Of a DNA stretch of 64,000 bases, positions 6,514-17,641 are shown piece after piece (positions within the stretch are counted from its first letter, which is position 1; each line of letters begins with the position of its first letter). The notes under the pieces were generated by a model. That model saw nothing but the letters and a program-made list of their open reading frames with translations. It had not been told where the DNA came from and did not search any database. Both the position numbers and the translations under genes were made by a program. Source of the DNA: Escherichia phage mobillu. Location of the stretch: the sequence record MN850622.1; one strand, given 5' to 3'.

Positions 6514-7956
6514 GTGGTAGAAATTATTTTGTCTCATCTAGTATATGACCAGGCTTATTTTTCTAAGGTCTGGCCTTATATGGATTCTGAGTATTTTGAG
6601 CGTGGACCGGCAAAAAATGTCTTTAAAATTATAAAGAGCCACGTTAACGAATATAATGCAATGCCATCTATCAATGCGTTAAAGGTGGCTTTAGATAACA
6701 GTTCTTTAACTGAAGCCGAATATAAAGGAACTTCAGACCTAATTGAAAAATTGGCTGATACTCCTGAAGACCATGAATGGTTGGTTAAAGAAACTGAGAA
6801 ATATGTCCAGCAAAAAGCGATGTATAATGCTACATCCAAAATCATTGAGATTCAGTCTAATGCTGAACTACCTCCAGAACAACGTAACAAGAAAATGCCT
6901 GACGTAGGAGCTATTCCTGATATTATGCGTCAAGCACTTTCAATTTCGTTTGATAGTTATGTTGGTCATGACTGGATGGAAGACTACGAAGCACGCTGGC
7001 TTTCTTATCTAAATAAAGCACGTAAGGTCCCGTTCAAATTAAACATTTTGAATAAAATCACTAAAGGTGGTGCTGAAACAGGTACACTAAACGTTTTAAT
7101 GGCCGGTGTTAACGTTGGTAAATCTTTAGGCCTTTGTTCACTTGCTGCAGATTATCTTCAAACAGGTCATAACGTTCTTTATATTTCTATGGAAATGGCT
7201 GAAGAAGTTTGTGCTAAGCGTATAGATGCAAACATGCTTGACGTATCACTCGATGATATCGATGATGGTAACGTATCTTATGCTGAATATAAAGCCAAGA
7301 TGGAAAAATGGCGTTCAAAAACAACATTAGGACGTTTAGTAGTTAAACAGTATCCCACTGGTGGAGCTAATGCTAATACATTTCGTGCATTGCTTAATGA
7401 GTTAAAACTTAAGAAGAACTTTGTGCCATCTGTAATCATGGTTGATTACTTAGGTATTTGTGGGTCTTGTCGTATCAGAGTTTACACTGAAAATAGCTAC
7501 ACATTAGTTAAAGCTATCGCAGAAGAACTTCGTGCATTAGCAGTAGAATCTGAAACAGTTCTATGGACTGCAGCTCAAGTAGGACGGGCAGCATGGGATG
7601 CTTCGGATATGAACATGAGCGATATTGCAGAATCAGCAGGTTTACCAGCAACGGCAGATTTCATGTTGGCCGTAATTGAAACCGAAGAACTTGCACAAGC
7701 TGAACAACAACTTATCAAACAAATCAAATCACGATACGGCGATAAGAATAAGTGGAATAAATTCCTGATGGGTGTACGTAAAGGCAACCAGAAATGGATT
7801 GAGATTGAGCAAGAAGGCATGAACACACCTAACACAGTAAATGAAAACGCAGGTGCTCAGATGCGTCAGGCAGAGGTGAATCGTACGGAACGCGTAGGTA
7901 AAGCCAAAGCAACACGTGCTGACCTAGATAGCTTAGCCAATGAGTTAAAATTTTAA
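6514..7956 (+). CDS. 41: gp41 replicative DnaB-like helicase
   Basis: 480 aa, GTG start after AAGGAG; N-terminus MVEIILSHL...YFSKVWPYMDSEYFE matches T4 gp41; Walker A GVNVGKS. Confidence 0.95.
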   Translation: MVEIILSHLVYDQAYFSKVWPYMDSEYFERGPAKNVFKIIKSHVNEYNAMPSINALKVALDNSSLTEAEYKGTSDLIEKLADTPEDHEWLVKETEKYVQQKAMYNATSKIIEIQSNAELPPEQRNKKMPDVGAIPDIMRQALSISFDSYVGHDWMEDYEARWLSYLNKARKVPFKLNILNKITKGGAETGTLNVLMAGVNVGKSLGLCSLAADYLQTGHNVLYISMEMAEEVCAKRIDANMLDVSLDDIDDGNVSYAEYKAKMEKWRSKTTLGRLVVKQYPTGGANANTFRALLNELKLKKNFVPSVIMVDYLGICGSCRIRVYTENSYTLVKAIAEELRALAVESETVLWTAAQVGRAAWDASDMNMSDIAESAGLPATADFMLAVIETEELAQAEQQLIKQIKSRYGDKNKWNKFLMGVRKGNQKWIEIEQEGMNTPNTVNENAGAQMRQAEVNRTERVGKAKATRADLDSLANELKF

Positions 7957-7962
7957 TAAAAA

Positions 7963-7983
7963 GGAGACTTCGGTCTCCTTTCG
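7963..7983 (+). terminator. UUCG-tetraloop hairpin terminator after gene 41
   Basis: ggagaCTTCGgtctcc followed by short T-run. Confidence 0.55.
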
Positions 7984-7985
7984 GG

Positions 7986-8015
7986 GTTTACATCTTCCTC
8001 TAGGCATGATATGAT
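7986..8015 (+). promoter_or_regulatory. T4-type early promoter
   Basis: GTTTAC -35, TATGAT -10, spacer 18; directly after gene 41 terminator hairpin. Confidence 0.5.
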
Positions 8016-8044
8016 GTACTTACACCAACCAAGAGGAAAACATT

Positions 8045-8419
8045 ATGAATATGTCTCAAGCAATTTTTACTGTAATCACCGAAAACACAACTGTTGAAGT
8101 AGTTTCTCCACTGGCAACCTACGTTATTCTTGCTCCTAAAACTATTGTATCTCGTATGGAAAACATGGGCAAACGTATCGTACAAATAGTTGGAGCCGGA
8201 AATCAAAAACTTGATTATCTACGAACCATCAAAGCTTATGAACATTTCCAACTCGAAAAAGGTTCTCCTATCCAGGTAGAACTCGTAAATGGTGATATCG
8301 TTCGAGCAATGTTCCATCATTTCTATGCATTGAATGACCCATCTAAAGCGGTTCGTTTAATTGCATACGACGCAAACCAAAACGAAATCAACGCAGATGT
8401 ATCTAAATTACGTTTTTAA
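8045..8419 (+). CDS. hypothetical protein
   Basis: 124 aa ORF downstream of early promoter; no motif recognised. Confidence 0.5.
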   Translation: MNMSQAIFTVITENTTVEVVSPLATYVILAPKTIVSRMENMGKRIVQIVGAGNQKLDYLRTIKAYEHFQLEKGSPIQVELVNGDIVRAMFHHFYALNDPSKAVRLIAYDANQNEINADVSKLRF

Positions 8420-8448
8420 GTTTACTTCTCCAGTAGTTGTGTTATTAT
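8420..8448 (+). promoter_or_regulatory. T4-type early promoter with 10-bp inverted repeat around -10
   Basis: GTTTAC ... TATTAT; ccagtagttg / caactactgg flank the -10. Confidence 0.6.
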
Positions 8449-8474
8449 AGATCTATCAACTACTGGAGAACAAA

Positions 8475-8792
8475 ATGAAAACCATCGATTGTAAAGCAGA
8501 ATTTAAGATTTTTTATCACGGTTCAAGTAGTTCAGCTAACATCGAAAACATGCTTTGTCCTCCTGAAGAAACAGGAGTTCTGTCTGAAACTGGACGTAAG
8601 AAAAACTTGGATCGTGTATTCTTTACTGAAGATATCGGTTTAGCAAAGATTTATGCAGGACGAGCAGCACGCTCTTATGGAGGTGAACCACGTCTCTATC
8701 GAGTAATTTCTCCGGTAGATGTAGTTCAAATGAATGATACTAAAGGCGCTACAGTTTATCACGCTGAATGGGCATTTTGCGAGGAAATATGA
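8475..8792 (+). CDS. Arr-like (rifampin ADP-ribosyltransferase fold) small protein
   Basis: 105 aa; FYHGSSSSANIENML and RVFFTEDIGLAKIYA resemble Arr H-G-[ST]...YF(T/S) core; own early promoter with 10-bp inverted repeat. Confidence 0.45.
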   Translation: MKTIDCKAEFKIFYHGSSSSANIENMLCPPEETGVLSETGRKKNLDRVFFTEDIGLAKIYAGRAARSYGGEPRLYRVISPVDVVQMNDTKGATVYHAEWAFCEEI

Positions 8793-8977
8793 GCAAATTA
8801 ACTAAAGTTACTTTTATCGGTTGGTTTAAAAGCGGTGAGATGTTCACTAAAGATATCATGTTATCAGGTGATCGCGAAGAAATCGAGTGGGTTACGGTAC
8901 AACTTGCTGAAGTGAACAAAGCATTAGTTAAAGCATTTGTTAATGACGAGAAAGTTTTCGAAGCAGATTTTCGATAA
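8789..8977 (+). CDS. hypothetical small protein, translationally coupled to Arr-like gene (size/position compatible with dmd)
   Basis: ATGA overlap with upstream stop, GAGGAA upstream; 62 aa; T4 dmd is a ~60 aa gene in the same 41-61 interval. Confidence 0.4.
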   Translation: MSKLTKVTFIGWFKSGEMFTKDIMLSGDREEIEWVTVQLAEVNKALVKAFVNDEKVFEADFR

Positions 8978-8989
8978 TTTTAAATAGCT

Positions 8990-9019
8990 GTTTACAAGCC
9001 CCACATACTGTGTTACTAT
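8990..9019 (+). promoter_or_regulatory. T4-type early promoter
   Basis: GTTTAC + 18 + TACTAT, then CTATCAAC leader. Confidence 0.55.
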
Positions 9020-9047
9020 CTTTCTATCAACTACAGAGGAAATTGAA

Positions 9048-9416
9048 ATGAAAAAATTAATCGCTTTAGCAATGGTATTTGGATTAACCGGATGTGGTGC
9101 CCATGGCTTTATCCCTAATAATGTTGGCCAACTGATTTATAATCCGAATGTTAAACAGTACGACCAACCTAAAGTTGAAGTGGAAGACCCGGTTACTGTA
9201 GGTAATCGAATGATTCAAGCTGATGCCCATGCTCAACGTTATCGTGACTCTGATACTGTAGCATTGTCAAAAGAACAGCGCGTTAAAGAACATTGCTTAC
9301 AGGCTACTGAAATCGCATTCATTCGCTATGTTGAAACAACCGGTAAAGAGCCTACCCAGAAACAAATCGCGAATAACTACGTCCAGTGTATTGAACGTTT
9401 AAACAAATTTAATTAA
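9048..9416 (+). CDS. putative lipoprotein
   Basis: Signal peptide MKKLIALAMVFGLTGC with lipobox LTGC; 122 aa. Confidence 0.6.
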   Translation: MKKLIALAMVFGLTGCGAHGFIPNNVGQLIYNPNVKQYDQPKVEVEDPVTVGNRMIQADAHAQRYRDSDTVALSKEQRVKEHCLQATEIAFIRYVETTGKEPTQKQIANNYVQCIERLNKFN

Positions 9417-9419
9417 TTG

Positions 9420-9449
9420 GTTTACACCAAAGTTAAAATAAGATACTAT
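9420..9449 (+). promoter_or_regulatory. T4-type early promoter
   Basis: GTTTAC + 18 + TACTAT. Confidence 0.55.
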
Positions 9450-9477
9450 AAACATAACAAATCAAGAGGAAATTAAC

Positions 9478-9726
9478 ATGGAATTATTCGTAGCTAGTTC
9501 AGTAGCAGTTTTAATCGCAGGTATTGGTTCAATCATCATTTACATGTTGCCTTGGGTAATCGCACTTATTCGTGGCACAAAAAGCACAACAGCAATCTTC
9601 TTTGTATCTTTACTCTTTAACTGGACGATGGTTGGTTGGATTGGAACTTTAATTTGGTCTATCATTGCCGAAAAGAAATCGGCTCAGCAGCCTCAACAAG
9701 TAATTATTATTCGCGAAAAAGAATAA
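9478..9726 (+). CDS. small membrane protein resembling superinfection immunity (Imm) family
   Basis: 82 aa, two hydrophobic segments, central RGTKS and W-rich second helix (NWTMVGWIGTLIW). Confidence 0.4.
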   Translation: MELFVASSVAVLIAGIGSIIIYMLPWVIALIRGTKSTTAIFFVSLLFNWTMVGWIGTLIWSIIAEKKSAQQPQQVIIIREKE

Positions 9727-9730
9727 ACTT

Positions 9731-9760
9731 GTTTACATTATAGATGGACTATAGTATAGT
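9731..9760 (+). promoter_or_regulatory. T4-type early promoter with inverted repeat around -10
   Basis: GTTTAC; ggact-atagtatagt-agtcc. Confidence 0.55.
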
Positions 9761-9789
9761 AGTCCTATCAAATCAACTAAGGAGTTAAA

Positions 9790-10083
9790 ATGAAAAAGTT
9801 ATCATTGGCAGCAATCTTACTTGCAGTATCATGTGCACCGGCTCCAGTTACGGCAGGTTATGATAAAGACCTCTGTGAGTGGTCAATGACTGCAAATCAA
9901 GAAGATGTTGAACAACAAATCTTCTCTGATATCATGAACATCACTAAACGAGACCGTCCTAATATGGTTAATAAAGTTGTTGAACAACTTAAGTCTGGCG
10001 GTATCATGCAGTACAACTATGTTTTGTATTGTGACCCTAATTTCGATAACAAAGATATCGTAACCGAAATCACAGGTGAATAA
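9790..10083 (+). CDS. sp: Spackle-like periplasmic protein (superinfection exclusion / lysozyme inhibitor)
   Basis: 97 aa with cleavable signal peptide; size and position (before 61.2-like, upstream of 61) as T4 sp. Confidence 0.5.
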   Translation: MKKLSLAAILLAVSCAPAPVTAGYDKDLCEWSMTANQEDVEQQIFSDIMNITKRDRPNMVNKVVEQLKSGGIMQYNYVLYCDPNFDNKDIVTEITGE

Positions 10084-10084
10084 T

Positions 10085-10735
10085 ATGATTTATTATATGC
10101 ACAAAAATGCGCCATTTAAATATGGTAAATTTCCTAATGCACAATGTTATAATATAACGCCGAATGAAAATAATAACGGATACCATCTCGGTGTAATTTT
10201 TGTAATTGTTAAAGATAACGAAATAGTTGCCTGGGCAGATTTTAAAGGTACAACATATGATGTTAATCCTGTGCCTTTCACATATTACAATATAATGGAT
10301 TTGGCATATGATTATAATTGGTTTAATCATGACACGTTGGCTCATATTGAAGGTGTAGGATTTGACATCTCTTATTCTAGCTATTCATTATGTCCTATGA
10401 GCCGAGCTCACGGTAAAGATGTATCATATCTTTCAATTCGGAAACGTGTAAACTTCAAACGTAGTACAGAGTATGTTGGTGGACTCTTTGTTAAAGATAA
10501 TAAAATAACCCGTATTAGTTATCCTCTAAGTGTAGGCCAAAAAGATGTTGATGTTGATTTGGACTTAACTGAAAATAACATTAATCGTATTGCTTCTGTA
10601 TATTTTGATATCGATGAAAAAATTGTAGTGTGTGGATACGAATTACCACCTGAAGAAAAGGCCGAAGCAATTGAAGTCGAATTAGAAATTTCTGTTGATG
10701 ACCAAATATTTAATGCATTTATGAATCGAGGTTAA
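10085..10735 (+). CDS. hypothetical protein (61.2-position)
   Basis: ATG 1 nt after upstream stop; 216 aa. Confidence 0.5.
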   Translation: MIYYMHKNAPFKYGKFPNAQCYNITPNENNNGYHLGVIFVIVKDNEIVAWADFKGTTYDVNPVPFTYYNIMDLAYDYNWFNHDTLAHIEGVGFDISYSSYSLCPMSRAHGKDVSYLSIRKRVNFKRSTEYVGGLFVKDNKITRISYPLSVGQKDVDVDLDLTENNINRIASVYFDIDEKIVVCGYELPPEEKAEAIEVELEISVDDQIFNAFMNRG

Positions 10736-10736
10736 A

Positions 10737-10934
10737 ATGACTACTGCAATTTGCACTGGTTCTAAAATTAGTGTTTTTACAAGTTTTGAAGATTATGAAG
10801 TTGTTTCAAAACACCAATGCCATATTAGCGTAAAAGCTAATGATGGTGTAATTTGGAATATTCCACAGTATGAAGGCACTACATATGAAGTCACAGATAT
10901 AAATGGTGACAAAGCAATCTTTGTAATTGATTAA
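10737..10934 (+). CDS. hypothetical small protein
   Basis: 65 aa ORF tightly packed between neighbours. Confidence 0.4.
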   Translation: MTTAICTGSKISVFTSFEDYEVVSKHQCHISVKANDGVIWNIPQYEGTTYEVTDINGDKAIFVID

Positions 10935-10953
10935 ATATACTCAGGAGGTACCT

Positions 10954-11421
10954 ATGGGTATTATTAACACTGCAATAGATTCTGTTTATGCATATAAGTT
11001 TATTCGACTAATGCAAAAACCTTTTACTGAATGGAAAGCATACGAAGCCAAAATCATCGATGAACGTGGAAGTGTTCTTAAACGCCCTTCCACTCCTGAA
11101 GAGAAAGCGGCTTATACACCTTTTCATGCTTCAGTTCGTTCAATGAAGCGAATGATGAGCACTGTTCCAGGTCTTAATGGAATGGCCTCAATGATGTCTG
11201 CCTGGAGTGCTGTAGCTTCACGCTATAACATTACGGAAGAACAACAGAAAGAAATATTTAAAGAACTCCCTTTATTTGAGGATATGGTTGCTGGTGATTC
11301 AGGCGACAGTCCTCAAGCTATTGCATCAGGAACAACTACAGGTGCAGTCGTAAATAAAGGTCCAGAACAAATTCCTTCCAAGAAAAGAAAGCGAATTAAA
11401 GTAAATATTAATAAGTTGTGA
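10954..11421 (+). CDS. hypothetical protein
   Basis: AGGAGG RBS 6 nt upstream of ATG 10954; 155 aa; Ser/Met-rich middle, basic C-terminus. Confidence 0.5.
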   Translation: MGIINTAIDSVYAYKFIRLMQKPFTEWKAYEAKIIDERGSVLKRPSTPEEKAAYTPFHASVRSMKRMMSTVPGLNGMASMMSAWSAVASRYNITEEQQKEIFKELPLFEDMVAGDSGDSPQAIASGTTTGAVVNKGPEQIPSKKRKRIKVNINKL

Positions 11422-11460
11422 TATGATGGCCTTATTAATTTAAGGCCTCTGGAGAATACT

Positions 11461-12483
11461 ATGGCTGAATGGATAGATAATGAATTTGCTTATCGTGCGT
11501 TTTCTCACCTACCTCGTTTTAGACAAATCAATAATTCAAGCACATTTAAATTAACATTTCGATGTCCAGTTTGTGGCGACTCTCAGACAGATGCAATGAA
11601 AGCTCGCGGTTGGTATTATGGCGGTACTCCTGGTAATGTACATTGCTATAACTGTCAATACCACAATACAATTTCCGGATACTTAAAGGAGTATGATGAA
11701 GAGCTTTATCGCGAATATCTAATGGAAGTTCGTAAAGAAAAAGCTAGAATGGAACCAAAGATTGAAAAGGTTCCTGAAGCTAAGCCAGAGCCAGAGAAAA
11801 AGACTATAAATTCTTTGCCGTCTTGTTCTCGTCTGGACAAGTTGCCTGAAGAGCATCCTATTGTGAAATATGTTAAGTCTCGGTGTATTCCTAAAGAATC
11901 ATGGAACAGATTATGGTTCACATTAGAATGGCCCAAATTGGTCAACAAGATTCAACCTGGTACGTATAAGAAAGAGATTCCCGAACCACGTTTAGTGATT
12001 CCTATTTTTAATAAAGATGGTAAGGCCGAGTCATTCCAAGGACGTGCACTTCGTAAAGATGCTCCTCAGAAATATATCACTATTAAAGCGTTTGAGTCTG
12101 CAACAAAAATTTATGGTGTTGAACGTGTTAAGGAAGGGGACGTCTGGGTAATGGAAGGCCCTATTGATAGTTTATTCATACCCAATGCAATCGCTATTAC
12201 AGGCGGCTCAATAGATTTAGATGTGGTACCATTTAAAGAACGTCGGGTATGGGTAATGGATAATGAACCTAGGCATCCGGATACTATAGCTCGCATGAAG
12301 CGATTAGTTGATGCAGGCGAACGTGTCATGTTCTGGGATCGAGCTCCATGGAGATCAAAGGATGTGAATGATATGGTAATGAAAGAAAATGCAACACCAC
12401 AAGAAATTTTAGAATATATGAAACAGAATATTTCAAGTGGGTTGCATGCTAAAATGAGATTATCTCGTTATTCGAAGATTTAA
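11461..12483 (+). CDS. 61: gp61 DNA primase
   Basis: 340 aa; N-terminal zinc-binding CPVCGDS...CYNC, toprim-like core; synteny. Confidence 0.9.
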   Translation: MAEWIDNEFAYRAFSHLPRFRQINNSSTFKLTFRCPVCGDSQTDAMKARGWYYGGTPGNVHCYNCQYHNTISGYLKEYDEELYREYLMEVRKEKARMEPKIEKVPEAKPEPEKKTINSLPSCSRLDKLPEEHPIVKYVKSRCIPKESWNRLWFTLEWPKLVNKIQPGTYKKEIPEPRLVIPIFNKDGKAESFQGRALRKDAPQKYITIKAFESATKIYGVERVKEGDVWVMEGPIDSLFIPNAIAITGGSIDLDVVPFKERRVWVMDNEPRHPDTIARMKRLVDAGERVMFWDRAPWRSKDVNDMVMKENATPQEILEYMKQNISSGLHAKMRLSRYSKI

Positions 12484-15493: not shown

Positions 15494-16075
15494 ATGACAT
15501 GTCAATCTGAACTTCAAGAACGTGAATACCTAACAAATCTGATTGATAGCAAATTCACCCACCAAGAACAAAACATTCTCTGGGCTTGCACCGATTCTAA
15601 GGAAGACCCGGATTTCCACTATGAATTAGACCATCTTGTTCGTAAGCATATGACTTCTACAGTACCAGTAGAACTCTACCGTGGTGTAACTCCAGAAGAA
15701 GTAGAACGTCTTTCACTTCTTTCTGTTGGTTGCCATTGGTCTCCTGGACGAGTAACATCGTTCACAACTGATTTCAGTACAGCTCGTCAATTCTCCGGGA
15801 GATGGGAATATCAGACGTACACTATTCTTAGTCTCAGGAATGCTCCATTCATTTTTGATTACTACCAAAACATGATTAACATTGTACTCGCCGGAAAGAA
15901 CCCTAAGCATGTTATGGAAGAAACGCGTGTTGACGTCCTAGATATGATTGAATCTGAACAAGAGTACATGGTCTCAGGTATCTCTAGATTTGAGATTGTG
16001 GAAATTGAAGACTTAGAATATGACCCTTTATCTCGATTATACAAAATCATTCATTTGAAAATGTTGAATTTTTAG
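15494..16075 (+). CDS. ADP-ribosyltransferase, ModA/ModB family (ModB position)
   Basis: 193 aa; R-S-E triad: ELYRG, FSTAR, SEQEY; tandem with paralog; synteny next to srd. Confidence 0.7.
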   Translation: MTCQSELQEREYLTNLIDSKFTHQEQNILWACTDSKEDPDFHYELDHLVRKHMTSTVPVELYRGVTPEEVERLSLLSVGCHWSPGRVTSFTTDFSTARQFSGRWEYQTYTILSLRNAPFIFDYYQNMINIVLAGKNPKHVMEETRVDVLDMIESEQEYMVSGISRFEIVEIEDLEYDPLSRLYKIIHLKMLNF

Positions 16076-16104
16076 TGTACAAACTCTTCCAATGATGATA
16101 CTAT
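16075..16104 (+). promoter_or_regulatory. T4-type early promoter (variant -35 GTGTAC)
   Basis: GTGTAC + 18 + TACTAT, CTTTATCAAC leader. Confidence 0.45.
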
Positions 16105-16133
16105 TACCTTTATCAACCACAGGAGAAACCTAA

Positions 16134-16742
16134 ATGTTTATGCCGTATAACGAGTGTGAAATTGAAGAAATTGTTCGTCGTGCTCAAAACCCCGAATATC
16201 AAGATGTATTGCAGTACGAAATTGATAGTCAATTCAGCGACATTGAACAAAGTGTACTGTGGCAGTGTATGGAAAACAAGCCAGACTGTATTCAACAGGA
16301 GTTAAGTTCAATCGTTCGTAGAAATTGGACGTCTTCTGTTCCTGAGACAATGTATCGTGGAATCTCTAAGAAAACTATGGCCGCACTCGATGATAAAGGC
16401 ATTGGTAGTATTATTAAATTTGACAGAGTAATGAGCTTCAGCCCAGTGTTCGGTGTAGCACGTAACTTTGCTTCGTATAATTTTTACGGAACATTTAATA
16501 TGTTCTGCATCAAAGATGCACCATTTGCTTTCAACTTCCGTGAACATATGCTTAACATGATTCTGGCTGCGCCATCTTGTGAGTTCAATGGAGCTTTCCC
16601 TGAAGCGACAAGACGGTCTAATGCTAGACTTATATCCGACGAATGTGAATTTATGCTCCCTATAGGGACTACACTGCGTGTAGATTCTATTATTCAAGAT
16701 GGACGTTATACAATCTGGAATCTGTCTATTGTCAGTTACTGA
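16134..16742 (+). CDS. ADP-ribosyltransferase, ModA/ModB family (ModA position)
   Basis: 202 aa; MYRGIS, FSPVFGVAR, ECEF motifs; paralog of upstream gene. Confidence 0.7.
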   Translation: MFMPYNECEIEEIVRRAQNPEYQDVLQYEIDSQFSDIEQSVLWQCMENKPDCIQQELSSIVRRNWTSSVPETMYRGISKKTMAALDDKGIGSIIKFDRVMSFSPVFGVARNFASYNFYGTFNMFCIKDAPFAFNFREHMLNMILAAPSCEFNGAFPEATRRSNARLISDECEFMLPIGTTLRVDSIIQDGRYTIWNLSIVSY

Positions 16743-16894: not shown

Positions 16895-17641
16895 ATGTTA
16901 TCAAATAATAAAATTAACAAAATCAATCGTCGTCTTGACCACACCAGAGCTTCTGCGAAGAGACGCTCTAAGGATTTTAACTTAGACTTTAATTACCTTA
17001 AAAACATTCTTGATCAAAAGGTCTGCGCTTACTCAGGTGAATCTTTCAATAACTCTGTTGAAGGTGAGAAATTATCCTTAGAACGTTTTAATAACGATAT
17101 CGGCTACATTAAAGGTAATGTTATCCCGGTTAAGAAAAAATATAACACGGCTCGTTCTGATTTAACATTAGAAGAACTTATTGAGAAACGTGACGCTGTT
17201 GCAAGACGTATCGCTAATCCTTCTGCCCGTAAAGTAGAGAAACTTAATCTCGACGAGAAGAAATGGGCCCAAATTAAAAAGGTTTATGATACTATTTTAA
17301 AAATCCGAGCAAAACGTGAAAATCGTGTTAAGCATATGGCGAACATGATGAAAAATCAACCTTTATCTAACGAATCTAAACTTAGAATTGTTGCTTTGAA
17401 AGCACGCATTAATGGCTCACATCAAGCAGAAGGCCATGAACTTACTAAACTCAACGTTCTTCTTAAAGGCTCTGACTGGAAAACTAAAACTAAATTAACT
17501 GACGCTGAATCGCTTTTCGATACATATGATAAAGTTATCCAAGGTCTGCAACGCTTTGAAAAGATTGGTTTCATTGGTAAATTAAAATTGAAACGTGGCT
17601 TACCACTTAGCGCATCATTATTCCAACTGATTAAAGGTTAA
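16895..17641 (+). CDS. srd: Srd-like protein (sigma-70/32 decoy-like)
   Basis: 248 aa basic protein located between mod genes and dda as T4 srd. Confidence 0.5.
   Translation: MLSNNKINKINRRLDHTRASAKRRSKDFNLDFNYLKNILDQKVCAYSGESFNNSVEGEKLSLERFNNDIGYIKGNVIPVKKKYNTARSDLTLEELIEKRDAVARRIANPSARKVEKLNLDEKKWAQIKKVYDTILKIRAKRENRVKHMANMMKNQPLSNESKLRIVALKARINGSHQAEGHELTKLNVLLKGSDWKTKTKLTDAESLFDTYDKVIQGLQRFEKIGFIGKLKLKRGLPLSASLFQLIKG

Follow-up and report, generated by a model that had tools for sequence, protein, structure and literature searches.

What would a T4-like phage do with a protein of 105 amino acids (aa) that resembles an ADP-ribosyltransferase (ART)? The question is raised by an open reading frame (ORF) at positions 8475-8792 of a 64,000-nucleotide (nt) stretch of Escherichia phage mobillu (MN850622.1; the whole stretch is hereafter called the window), in the hyperplastic island between genes 41 and 61. 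A reading of this DNA from its sequence alone had proposed an ART of the type of Arr, the rifampin ADP-ribosyltransferase, followed by a 62-aa ORF that could be its immunity partner. We find that ORF 8475-8792 is a genuine gene and no chance ORF, and that its product belongs to the ART superfamily as an uncharacterized member. The name is found in some database records already, and we see an experimental lead here rather than a surprise. Judging from its sequence, an ART that neither modifies rifampin nor comes with an immunity partner is the most likely reading. More specifically, we consider it probable that the protein is an immediate-early ART, dependent on nicotinamide adenine dinucleotide (NAD+), that acts on a conserved host component. 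It would transfer ADP-ribose from NAD+ to this component and serve as an early takeover or counter-defence effector.

The gene is widespread. Using tblastn, we found it in 609 phage records, all of them T4-like genomes of 150-235 kb, from hosts that include Escherichia, Klebsiella, Acinetobacter, Aeromonas, Enterobacter and Vibrio, among others. The protein matches an unnamed PHROGs family, phrog_2110, end to end (3.3e-60), and the 120 clusters closest to it are 62-99% identical. Some GenBank and RefSeq records name proteins of 70-99% identity "ADP-ribosyl transferase" or "rifampin ADP-ribosyl transferase". The ADP-ribosyltransferase of the mar005P1 paper is a packaged Alt homologue.

To what extent do structure and homology support such names? 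An AlphaFold2 model built with 32 homologues (predicted local distance difference test, 86.7; predicted template modelling score, 0.77) contains six strands and one long helix. The split beta-sheet core of ARTs, described as "two three-stranded units" (PMC9503650), is present, and the model consists of this bare core. When the model was compared with known structures using Foldseek, KptA and Arr took the top ranks (probability 0.99-1.00), with Tpt1/KptA as the best structural match, and BFVD models of relatives superposed on it with template modelling scores of 0.89-0.92. At the sequence level, a profile made from close homologues found no PDB sequence. A full-library search with a hidden Markov model (HMM) yielded 222 representative clusters, and the profile broadened with these clusters detected Arr-ms (2HW2, 9IAF; E 3e-4) and Arr-2 (E 0.019). 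Likewise, hhalign aligned the family profile to Arr-2 over residues 6-84 (94.6% probability, E 6.5e-8), and the Pfam Arr-ms model matched 24 of 55 domain sequences and 31 of 55 multidomain relatives, the best at 1.3e-10. Structure and profile homology therefore support a minimal ART fold with Arr as its nearest relative in sequence, as the sequence-only reading had proposed.

The residues that line the NAD+ site in known ARTs are largely kept. For the H-Y-[EDQ] clade of the ART superfamily, the motifs to look for are a His on strand 1, a Tyr on the second motif strand and a catalytic Glu, Asp or Gln. The family signature, numbered on the 105-aa protein, is H15-G16-[ST], E38-x-G-R41-K-K-N44, V-F49-x-T51, A57-x-x-Y60-A-x-R63, G69-G70 and G91, and in fuller form it reads [FY]-Y-H-G-[TS], P-P, S-E-x-G-R-K-K-N-L-D, V-F-F-T, A-x-I-Y-A-G-R-A, G-G-x-P and G-[AT]-[TS]-V-[YF]. 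H15 and G16 occur in all 101 representatives of the wider family (the His in 116 of 118 T4-like sequences), and H15-G16-S17 aligns to Arr H19-G20-T21. Of the pattern first noted here, H-G-[ST]...YF[ST], the first half thus stands, while the second motif is in fact V48-F49-F50-T51, that is, FFT. The position of Arr Tyr49 is occupied by F49 in 98 of 101 representatives and by Tyr in 3, i.e., by an aromatic residue that in most members has no hydroxyl. Eleven residues further on lies Y60, conserved in 100 of 101. Diphtheria toxin and PARP1 have a Y-x10-Y spacing, to which F49-x10-Y60 would be equivalent. E38, present in 97 of 101 representatives, is the only near-universal acid of the wider family. 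This pattern of conservation suggests that the protein has NAD+-dependent ADP-ribosyltransferase activity.

The constraint on the gene bears on what it may act upon. When the same pairs of phages were compared between genera, the ART protein was 81-90% identical, versus 65-69% for gp41 and 61-63% for gp61; in the case of an Acinetobacter phage, the ART stood at 74% identity versus 58%. By the Nei-Gojobori method, the nonsynonymous divergence (dN) of the ART was ~0.08, versus 0.25 for gp41, and its ratio to synonymous divergence (dN/dS) was 0.05-0.13 between genera, at a dS of 0.7-1.6. The ART protein thus evolves at about a third of the pace of the gp41 helicase, a conservation that is mainly due to purifying selection. 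From so slow a pace in an accessory gene of a hyperplastic region, set against that of the replicative helicase, we infer that its target or ligand is conserved; that the target is a component of the host is likewise what we infer. Constraint of this kind speaks against a target that is a defence protein evolving fast.

The domain is also found within larger proteins. Fifty-five of 149 representatives are multidomain (190-3924 aa), with the ART domain placed internally or at the C terminus. Co-occurring domains include ART-PolyVal (8 proteins), NUDIX (3), GNAT, Toprim, LPD23 and ddrB-ParB, as well as lambda-type portal, tape-measure, CHAP and 2H/Acb1-like phosphoesterase domains. Domains of this set are those of the polyvalent proteins, which accompany the DNA that phages and conjugative elements deliver (Iyer et al. 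2017, PMC5512222). Two members of the wider family sat on contigs shorter than 1 kb, which showed no neighbouring genes. A profile scan of 185,579 species-representative genomes recovered only 3 loci, at least one of them syntenic with the Klebsiella-phage clade. Given this rarity and the polyvalent fusions, the domain is essentially an invader-borne effector module. Of note, in the 954-aa protein P0166 a lambda-type portal is followed by the ART domain (692-784) and then by a 2H/Acb1-like phosphoesterase (833-930), and in the 1955-aa protein P0163 the order is ART-PolyVal, ART domain (1714-1801) and NUDIX (1832-1929). Judging by their domains, both look like combinations of ADP-ribose-producing and ADP-ribose-processing modules in one injected protein. 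We also noticed that Klebsiella phage Roth27 (locus L002, 639-5219) and a Flagellimonas marina contig (locus L074, 3111-8060), which itself looks like T4-like phage DNA, share a block of genes: a P-loop kinase (with a Zeta_toxin-like Pfam match in L074), an ORF of ~290 aa, the ART, small ORFs and an Rnl2-type RNA ligase. This synteny may point to a link with RNA repair, or may be one inherited block.

Several observations weigh against an NAD+-dependent transferase that acts on a host component. On its own, the 105-aa protein matches nothing in Pfam (E <= 1), NCBIfam or PADLOC. The canonical Tyr is a Phe (F49), and no canonical catalytic acid could be placed: in the HMM and hhalign alignments no acid aligns to Arr D84, the alignments ending at E82 of Arr-ms and E89 of Arr-2, and the next residues of the window protein (Q85-M86-N87-D88) are not conserved in the family. 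E103 is invariant in the T4-like sequences (118 of 118) and is found in 13 of 101 representatives of the wider family, where I, V or L takes its place in 66. The dS of the ART gene is somewhat below that of gp41, so that part of the conservation could reflect transfer between phages. Our search of the literature on Arr-like ARTs in T4-like phages found no paper studying these proteins. Lastly, the transcription start and the masking of the Shine-Dalgarno (SD) sequence, both described below, are predictions. A compensatory relation between Glu85 and Glu103 in the wide family was considered and dropped, as several members carry both.

In light of these points, other activities have to be weighed. 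With Tpt1/KptA as the closest structure, the protein could instead perform Tpt1/KptA-like chemistry and remove or cap a 2'-, 3'- or 5'-phosphate on RNA, in RNA repair or end modification, which we consider quite unlikely. KptA has the pattern H-H-h, and the hydrophobic residue that most of the wider family carries at position 103 would be in keeping with it, but this position is the third catalytic one only putatively. Some relatives are fused to a 2H/Acb1-like phosphoesterase or NUDIX domain, and both in the Klebsiella/Enterobacter-type clade and on the Flagellimonas contig the Rnl2-type RNA ligase follows 1.4-1.7 kb downstream of the gene, which has the P-loop kinase nearby. However, this linkage is a single synteny block, shared by the Flagellimonas contig and the Klebsiella-phage clade, with no independent recurrence, and we rejected it as independent evidence; nor does an RNA ligase lie nearby in the window. 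Furthermore, the RNA-binding N-lobe of Tpt1 is absent, and 75 of 179 Tpt1 residues align in the structural comparison. The nearest relative in sequence, Arr, modifies a small-molecule hydroxyl, and with 105 aa and no additional substrate-binding domain, the phage protein might act in the same manner, inactivating a diffusible compound instead of a macromolecule, for instance an inhibitor resembling an antibiotic or a nucleotide of host immune signalling, an idea that has been raised for phage Arr homologues (Iyer et al. 2022, PMC9503650). This, too, is unlikely: both rifampin-binding sites of Arr and its DPN motif are missing, no candidate ligand is known, and the fusion partners of the domain are those of injected polyvalent effectors, thought to act on macromolecules. 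A fold cut down to its bare core, with the NAD-site residues kept yet with Phe for Tyr and no conserved acid at the Arr D84 position, could also point to an NAD+ glycohydrolase, or to a non-catalytic binder of NAD+ or ADP-ribose (a sponge or decoy), rather than to a transferase. To this we give little credence, since the conservation of E103 throughout the T4-like sequences and of E38 in nearly all representatives suggests chemistry beyond binding, and constraint of this strength along the entire protein is what one would sooner expect of an enzyme that has a specific partner.

A further alternative, put forward in the sequence-only reading, is a toxic ART whose immunity protein is encoded by the 62-aa ORF. 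Genes for immunity proteins or antitoxins do lie beside many ART toxins, and the start of the 62-aa ORF overlaps the ART stop (ATGA), which is consistent with translational coupling. The ORF is, however, Dmd itself: it matches Pfam PF17587 with E 5e-21 and 75.2 bits (cut-off 27), residues 4-62 covering model positions 3-59 of 60, and it is annotated Dmd in near-identical phages. Dmd is the discriminator of mRNA degradation, the antitoxin of RnlA and LsoA, and T4 has Dmd without the ART. Moreover, the gene that follows the ART was Dmd in 12 of 69 loci, in Mosigvirus- and Dhakavirus-type phages only. Over all 69 loci, at least 8 unrelated ORF types occurred in this place (besides Dmd, hydrophobic, membrane-like ORFs of 55-58 aa, Cys-rich ORFs of 41-46 aa, a 96-aa lipoprotein-like ORF and assorted unrelated ones), or there was nothing within 170 nt. 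The site of the ART gene varies as well, from the 41-61 island (~21-25 loci) to a block that precedes genes for an Srd-like protein and an RNA ligase (13) or, in Aeromonas phages, near hoc, and gene packing in these genomes ordinarily involves overlaps of 0 to -4 nt. As the downstream gene differs between clades, the ART has no conserved partner, and as the adjacent small ORF is Dmd, there is no toxin-immunity module to annotate here; we regard this alternative as largely refuted and very improbable. In Escherichia phage fDHCT2 (locus L005, 2819-3217) and Dhakavirus-type loci related to it, the ART gene is followed by a tandem pair of dmd paralogues. The first of them shares 44-67% identity with the Dmd of the window, varying from phage to phage, which suggests antitoxin diversification. 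In the RefSeq record of phage HX01 (NC_018855.1; locus L069, 1708-2349), homologues of the small ORFs that follow dmd carry names that look spurious, "DNA polymerase" for one of 70 aa and "iduronate sulfatase" for the DUF5481 homologue.

An NAD+-dependent ART acting on a conserved host component thus remains our preferred reading. We regard as doubtful, if somewhat less so than the alternative chemistries above, a more far-reaching reading, namely that the protein is the founding solo member of a mobile-element-borne ART family that works without the canonical catalytic Glu/Asp, and ADP-ribosylates something other than a protein, for example the phosphate end of an RNA or DNA or an immune signal of the nucleotide type. 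If true, this would amount to a new substrate class for phage counter-defence, and could explain why the gene evolves slowly in comparison with the replicative helicase.

The surroundings of the gene are those of a Mosigvirus, an RB69-like T-even phage; positions 7900-11500 are 99% identical to Escherichia phage NRG-P0074. The features of the window referred to here are as follows.

6514-7956, + strand: gp41 helicase (Pfam)
7960-7981, + strand: terminator-like hairpin after gene 41, GGAGAC-TTCG-GTCTCC plus a T-run
8045-8419, + strand: 124-aa ORF of unknown function (ORF124), phrog_10668, no Pfam family
8420-8448, + strand: early promoter of sigma-70, T4-like type, with -35 GTTTAC (8420-8425), a 17-nt spacer and extended -10 TGtTATTAT (8440-8448)
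8426-8470, + strand: stem-loop of the promoter-early stem-loop (PeSL) type, with perfect arms of 14 nt and a 17-nt loop containing the -10
8475-8792, + strand: 105-aa minimal ART-fold protein (six strands, one helix; family signature)
8789-8977, + strand: dmd, 62 aa (Pfam PF17587; sequence)
10076-10735, + strand: AdfA (anti-DarT factor A), full-length homologue (Pfam PF23813, 1.5e-119)
11461-12483, + strand: gp61 primase
15551-16006 and 16140-16733, + strand: two ModA/ModB-like genes (tblastn, 30-38% identity to T4 ModA/ModB)
16898-17638, + strand: srd homologue after the ModA/ModB-like genes (68% identity)

On the + strand, dmd is followed by genes for a DUF5481 protein, Imm, Spackle (Sp), AdfA, two small ORFs and the gp61 primase. 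The coordinates and length of the 105-aa ORF and its ATGA overlap are as first described, and so is the superinfection-exclusion neighbourhood, with gp41, Imm and Spackle, which were recognized by Pfam, and the gp61 primase; the two ModA/ModB-like ARTs claimed elsewhere in the window were found at ~15551-16733. The ART gene accordingly has genes of counter-defence and exclusion around it (Dmd, AdfA, Imm and Sp by Pfam), and with AdfA, a countermeasure against a host ART (DarT) is already present in the island. The AdfA gene starts inside the 3' end of the Spackle gene. In T4, dmd directly follows gene 41, and both the 124-aa and the 105-aa ORF are absent.

How would such a gene be expressed? 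As had been claimed, it has an early promoter of its own (GTTTAC-17-TATTAT), which we called from the sequence and a consensus scan, with a start predicted near 8455, ~7 nt past the -10. GTTTAC-type promoters occur in every intergenic gap of the island. An inverted repeat does surround the -10, though its perfect arms measure 14 nt rather than the 10 bp first given: TTCTCCAGTAGTTG (8426-8439) pairs with CAACTACTGGAGAA (8457-8470), or, alternatively, 19 nt pair at 89%. The RNA is predicted to fold with -21.2 kcal/mol (z = -5.0 versus shuffles), the predicted start lies just upstream of the 3' arm, and the SD sequence GGAG (8465-8468) falls within that arm. PeSL cassettes of T4-type phages consist of an early promoter, a stem-loop over the -10 and a 3' SD plus ATG, are located in hyperplastic regions and have an accessory ORF downstream (Arbiol et al. 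2010, PMC2839356). The ART gene shows each of these elements: an early promoter, a stable stem-loop, a 3' SD plus ATG, a hyperplastic region and an accessory ORF. Terminator/attenuator and recombination activities, assayed in that study with reporters and inverse PCR, are a further mark of PeSL cassettes. A sub-threshold Rfam match to the mir-2010 precursor at 8410-8484 on the - strand (27 bits versus 66, E 0.089) coincides with the promoter hairpin, and was rejected as an RNA gene and considered an artefact.

The position of the SD in the 3' arm suggests translational masking, instead of or besides termination. On read-through transcripts from gene 41 or ORF124, the 5' arm would pair with the SD and mask it, whereas transcripts starting at the gene's own promoter (~8455) would be devoid of the 5' arm and hence translatable; T4 uses SD masking on read-through transcripts at other genes. 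In other genera, too, the stretch immediately following the -35 upstream of ART homologues is complementary to the local SD, with differing arm sequences (TTCTCC/GGAGAA, ATCTCC/GGAGAT and TCCTC/GGAGGA). Taken at the level of sequence, this complementarity is suggestive of covariation. The ORF124 cassette follows the same design, with its own GTTTACA promoter and a TTCCTCT/AGAGGAA pairing that spans the -10 and the SD. In this scheme the ART gene would be transcribed at once after infection from its own early promoter. As the cassette sits between gene 41 and dmd, dmd would be co-transcribed with and translationally coupled to the ART, and both would be immediate-early; dmd has no promoter of its own in the window, and its SD (GAGGAA) lies inside ART codons E103-E104. 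The T4 dmd promoter also has an inverted repeat around the -10. That the ART was inserted downstream of an ancestral dmd promoter could not be demonstrated, since what the promoter region of T4 dmd has in common with this one is limited to the generic design of promoter and inverted repeat.

T4 is the model for phage ADP-ribosylation, through Alt, ModA and ModB, and because T4 is devoid of the 105-aa gene, this gene has escaped study. Yet T4-like phages that infect Escherichia, Klebsiella, Acinetobacter, Aeromonas and Vibrio carry it by the hundreds, and many of these phages are therapy candidates. The protein is near the smallest ART domain known, and its constraint at the protein level exceeds that of core replication genes. 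If its acceptor were found, T-even biology would gain a fourth ART activity, and the minimal catalytic requirements of the fold would be defined. The gene would also offer a new handle on the conflict between phages and bacteria over ADP-ribosylation and RNA/DNA modification (DarT/AdfA, CmdT, ModB RNAylation).

Among known systems, Arr (Arr-ms 2HW2 and Arr-2; PF12120) is the closest in sequence. Its hallmarks have been set out in two papers (PMC6092378, PMC8492726). Besides HGT and Y49, they are S[NH][YF], which lies in the beta2-beta3 loop and belongs to the NAD+ site; DPN[VL], whose catalytic Asp, D84, is 100% conserved among Arr proteins; and two rifampin sites, site 1 at 87-95 and site 2 in the C-terminal helix at 126-133. 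Arr and the phage protein have HG[ST] and the E-x-G-R loop in common, but Arr measures ~143-150 aa versus 105 aa, is devoid of the E-x-G-R-K-K-N loop signature peculiar to the phage family and has Tyr49 where the phage protein has Phe. S[NH][YF] is found nowhere in the 105-aa protein, the aligned stretch being T33-G34-V35; D84/DPN[VL] has no counterpart in it, and rifampin site 1 is absent. So is site 2 (the helix M[RK][DE]xL at ~126-133), as the protein ends at residue 105 and its model has no C-terminal helix. The label "Arr-type" therefore holds for the fold and for a distant family relationship, while several of the features that define Arr are missing; the absence of DPN, S[NH][YF] and the rifampin-binding helix, together with Phe for Tyr49, rules out an Arr orthologue.

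The likeness to Tpt1/KptA (9LD3, 9LDI, 8TG3) is structural, with ~20% sequence identity; profile searches of the 105-aa family gave no sequence match to it. Tpt1 has an N-terminal RNA-binding lobe, whereas the phage protein is the NAD+ lobe only, and most of the catalytic tetrad of Tpt1/KptA, Arg-His-Arg-Arg, resides in the lobe that the phage protein lacks. Nor did we detect a relationship in sequence with AcrIF11 (6KYF), an anti-CRISPR ADP-ribosyltransferase whose target is the type I-F Csy complex; that target is a variable defence system, whereas the 105-aa family is unusually conserved. T4 Alt, ModA and ModB are likewise phage ARTs that modify host proteins early in infection. They are of the R-S-E type and ~200-680 aa long, and were not among the sequence matches or top structure matches of the 105-aa protein, which does not resemble them. 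With PeSL cassettes, the ART cassette shares the early sigma-70-like promoter and the stem-loop over the -10, but PeSL stems are of the GGGG...CCCC type, unlike that of the ART cassette, which holds the SD inside its 3' arm. Finally, polyvalent proteins contain the domain of the 105-aa family beside ART-PolyVal, LPD23, ParB, NUDIX, GNAT, Toprim, portal and tape-measure domains, the Pfam ART-PolyVal model matching a separate region of the same proteins, distinct from the 105-aa domain. Whereas those are giant packaged proteins, the ART of the window is the solo, 105-aa product of an early gene.

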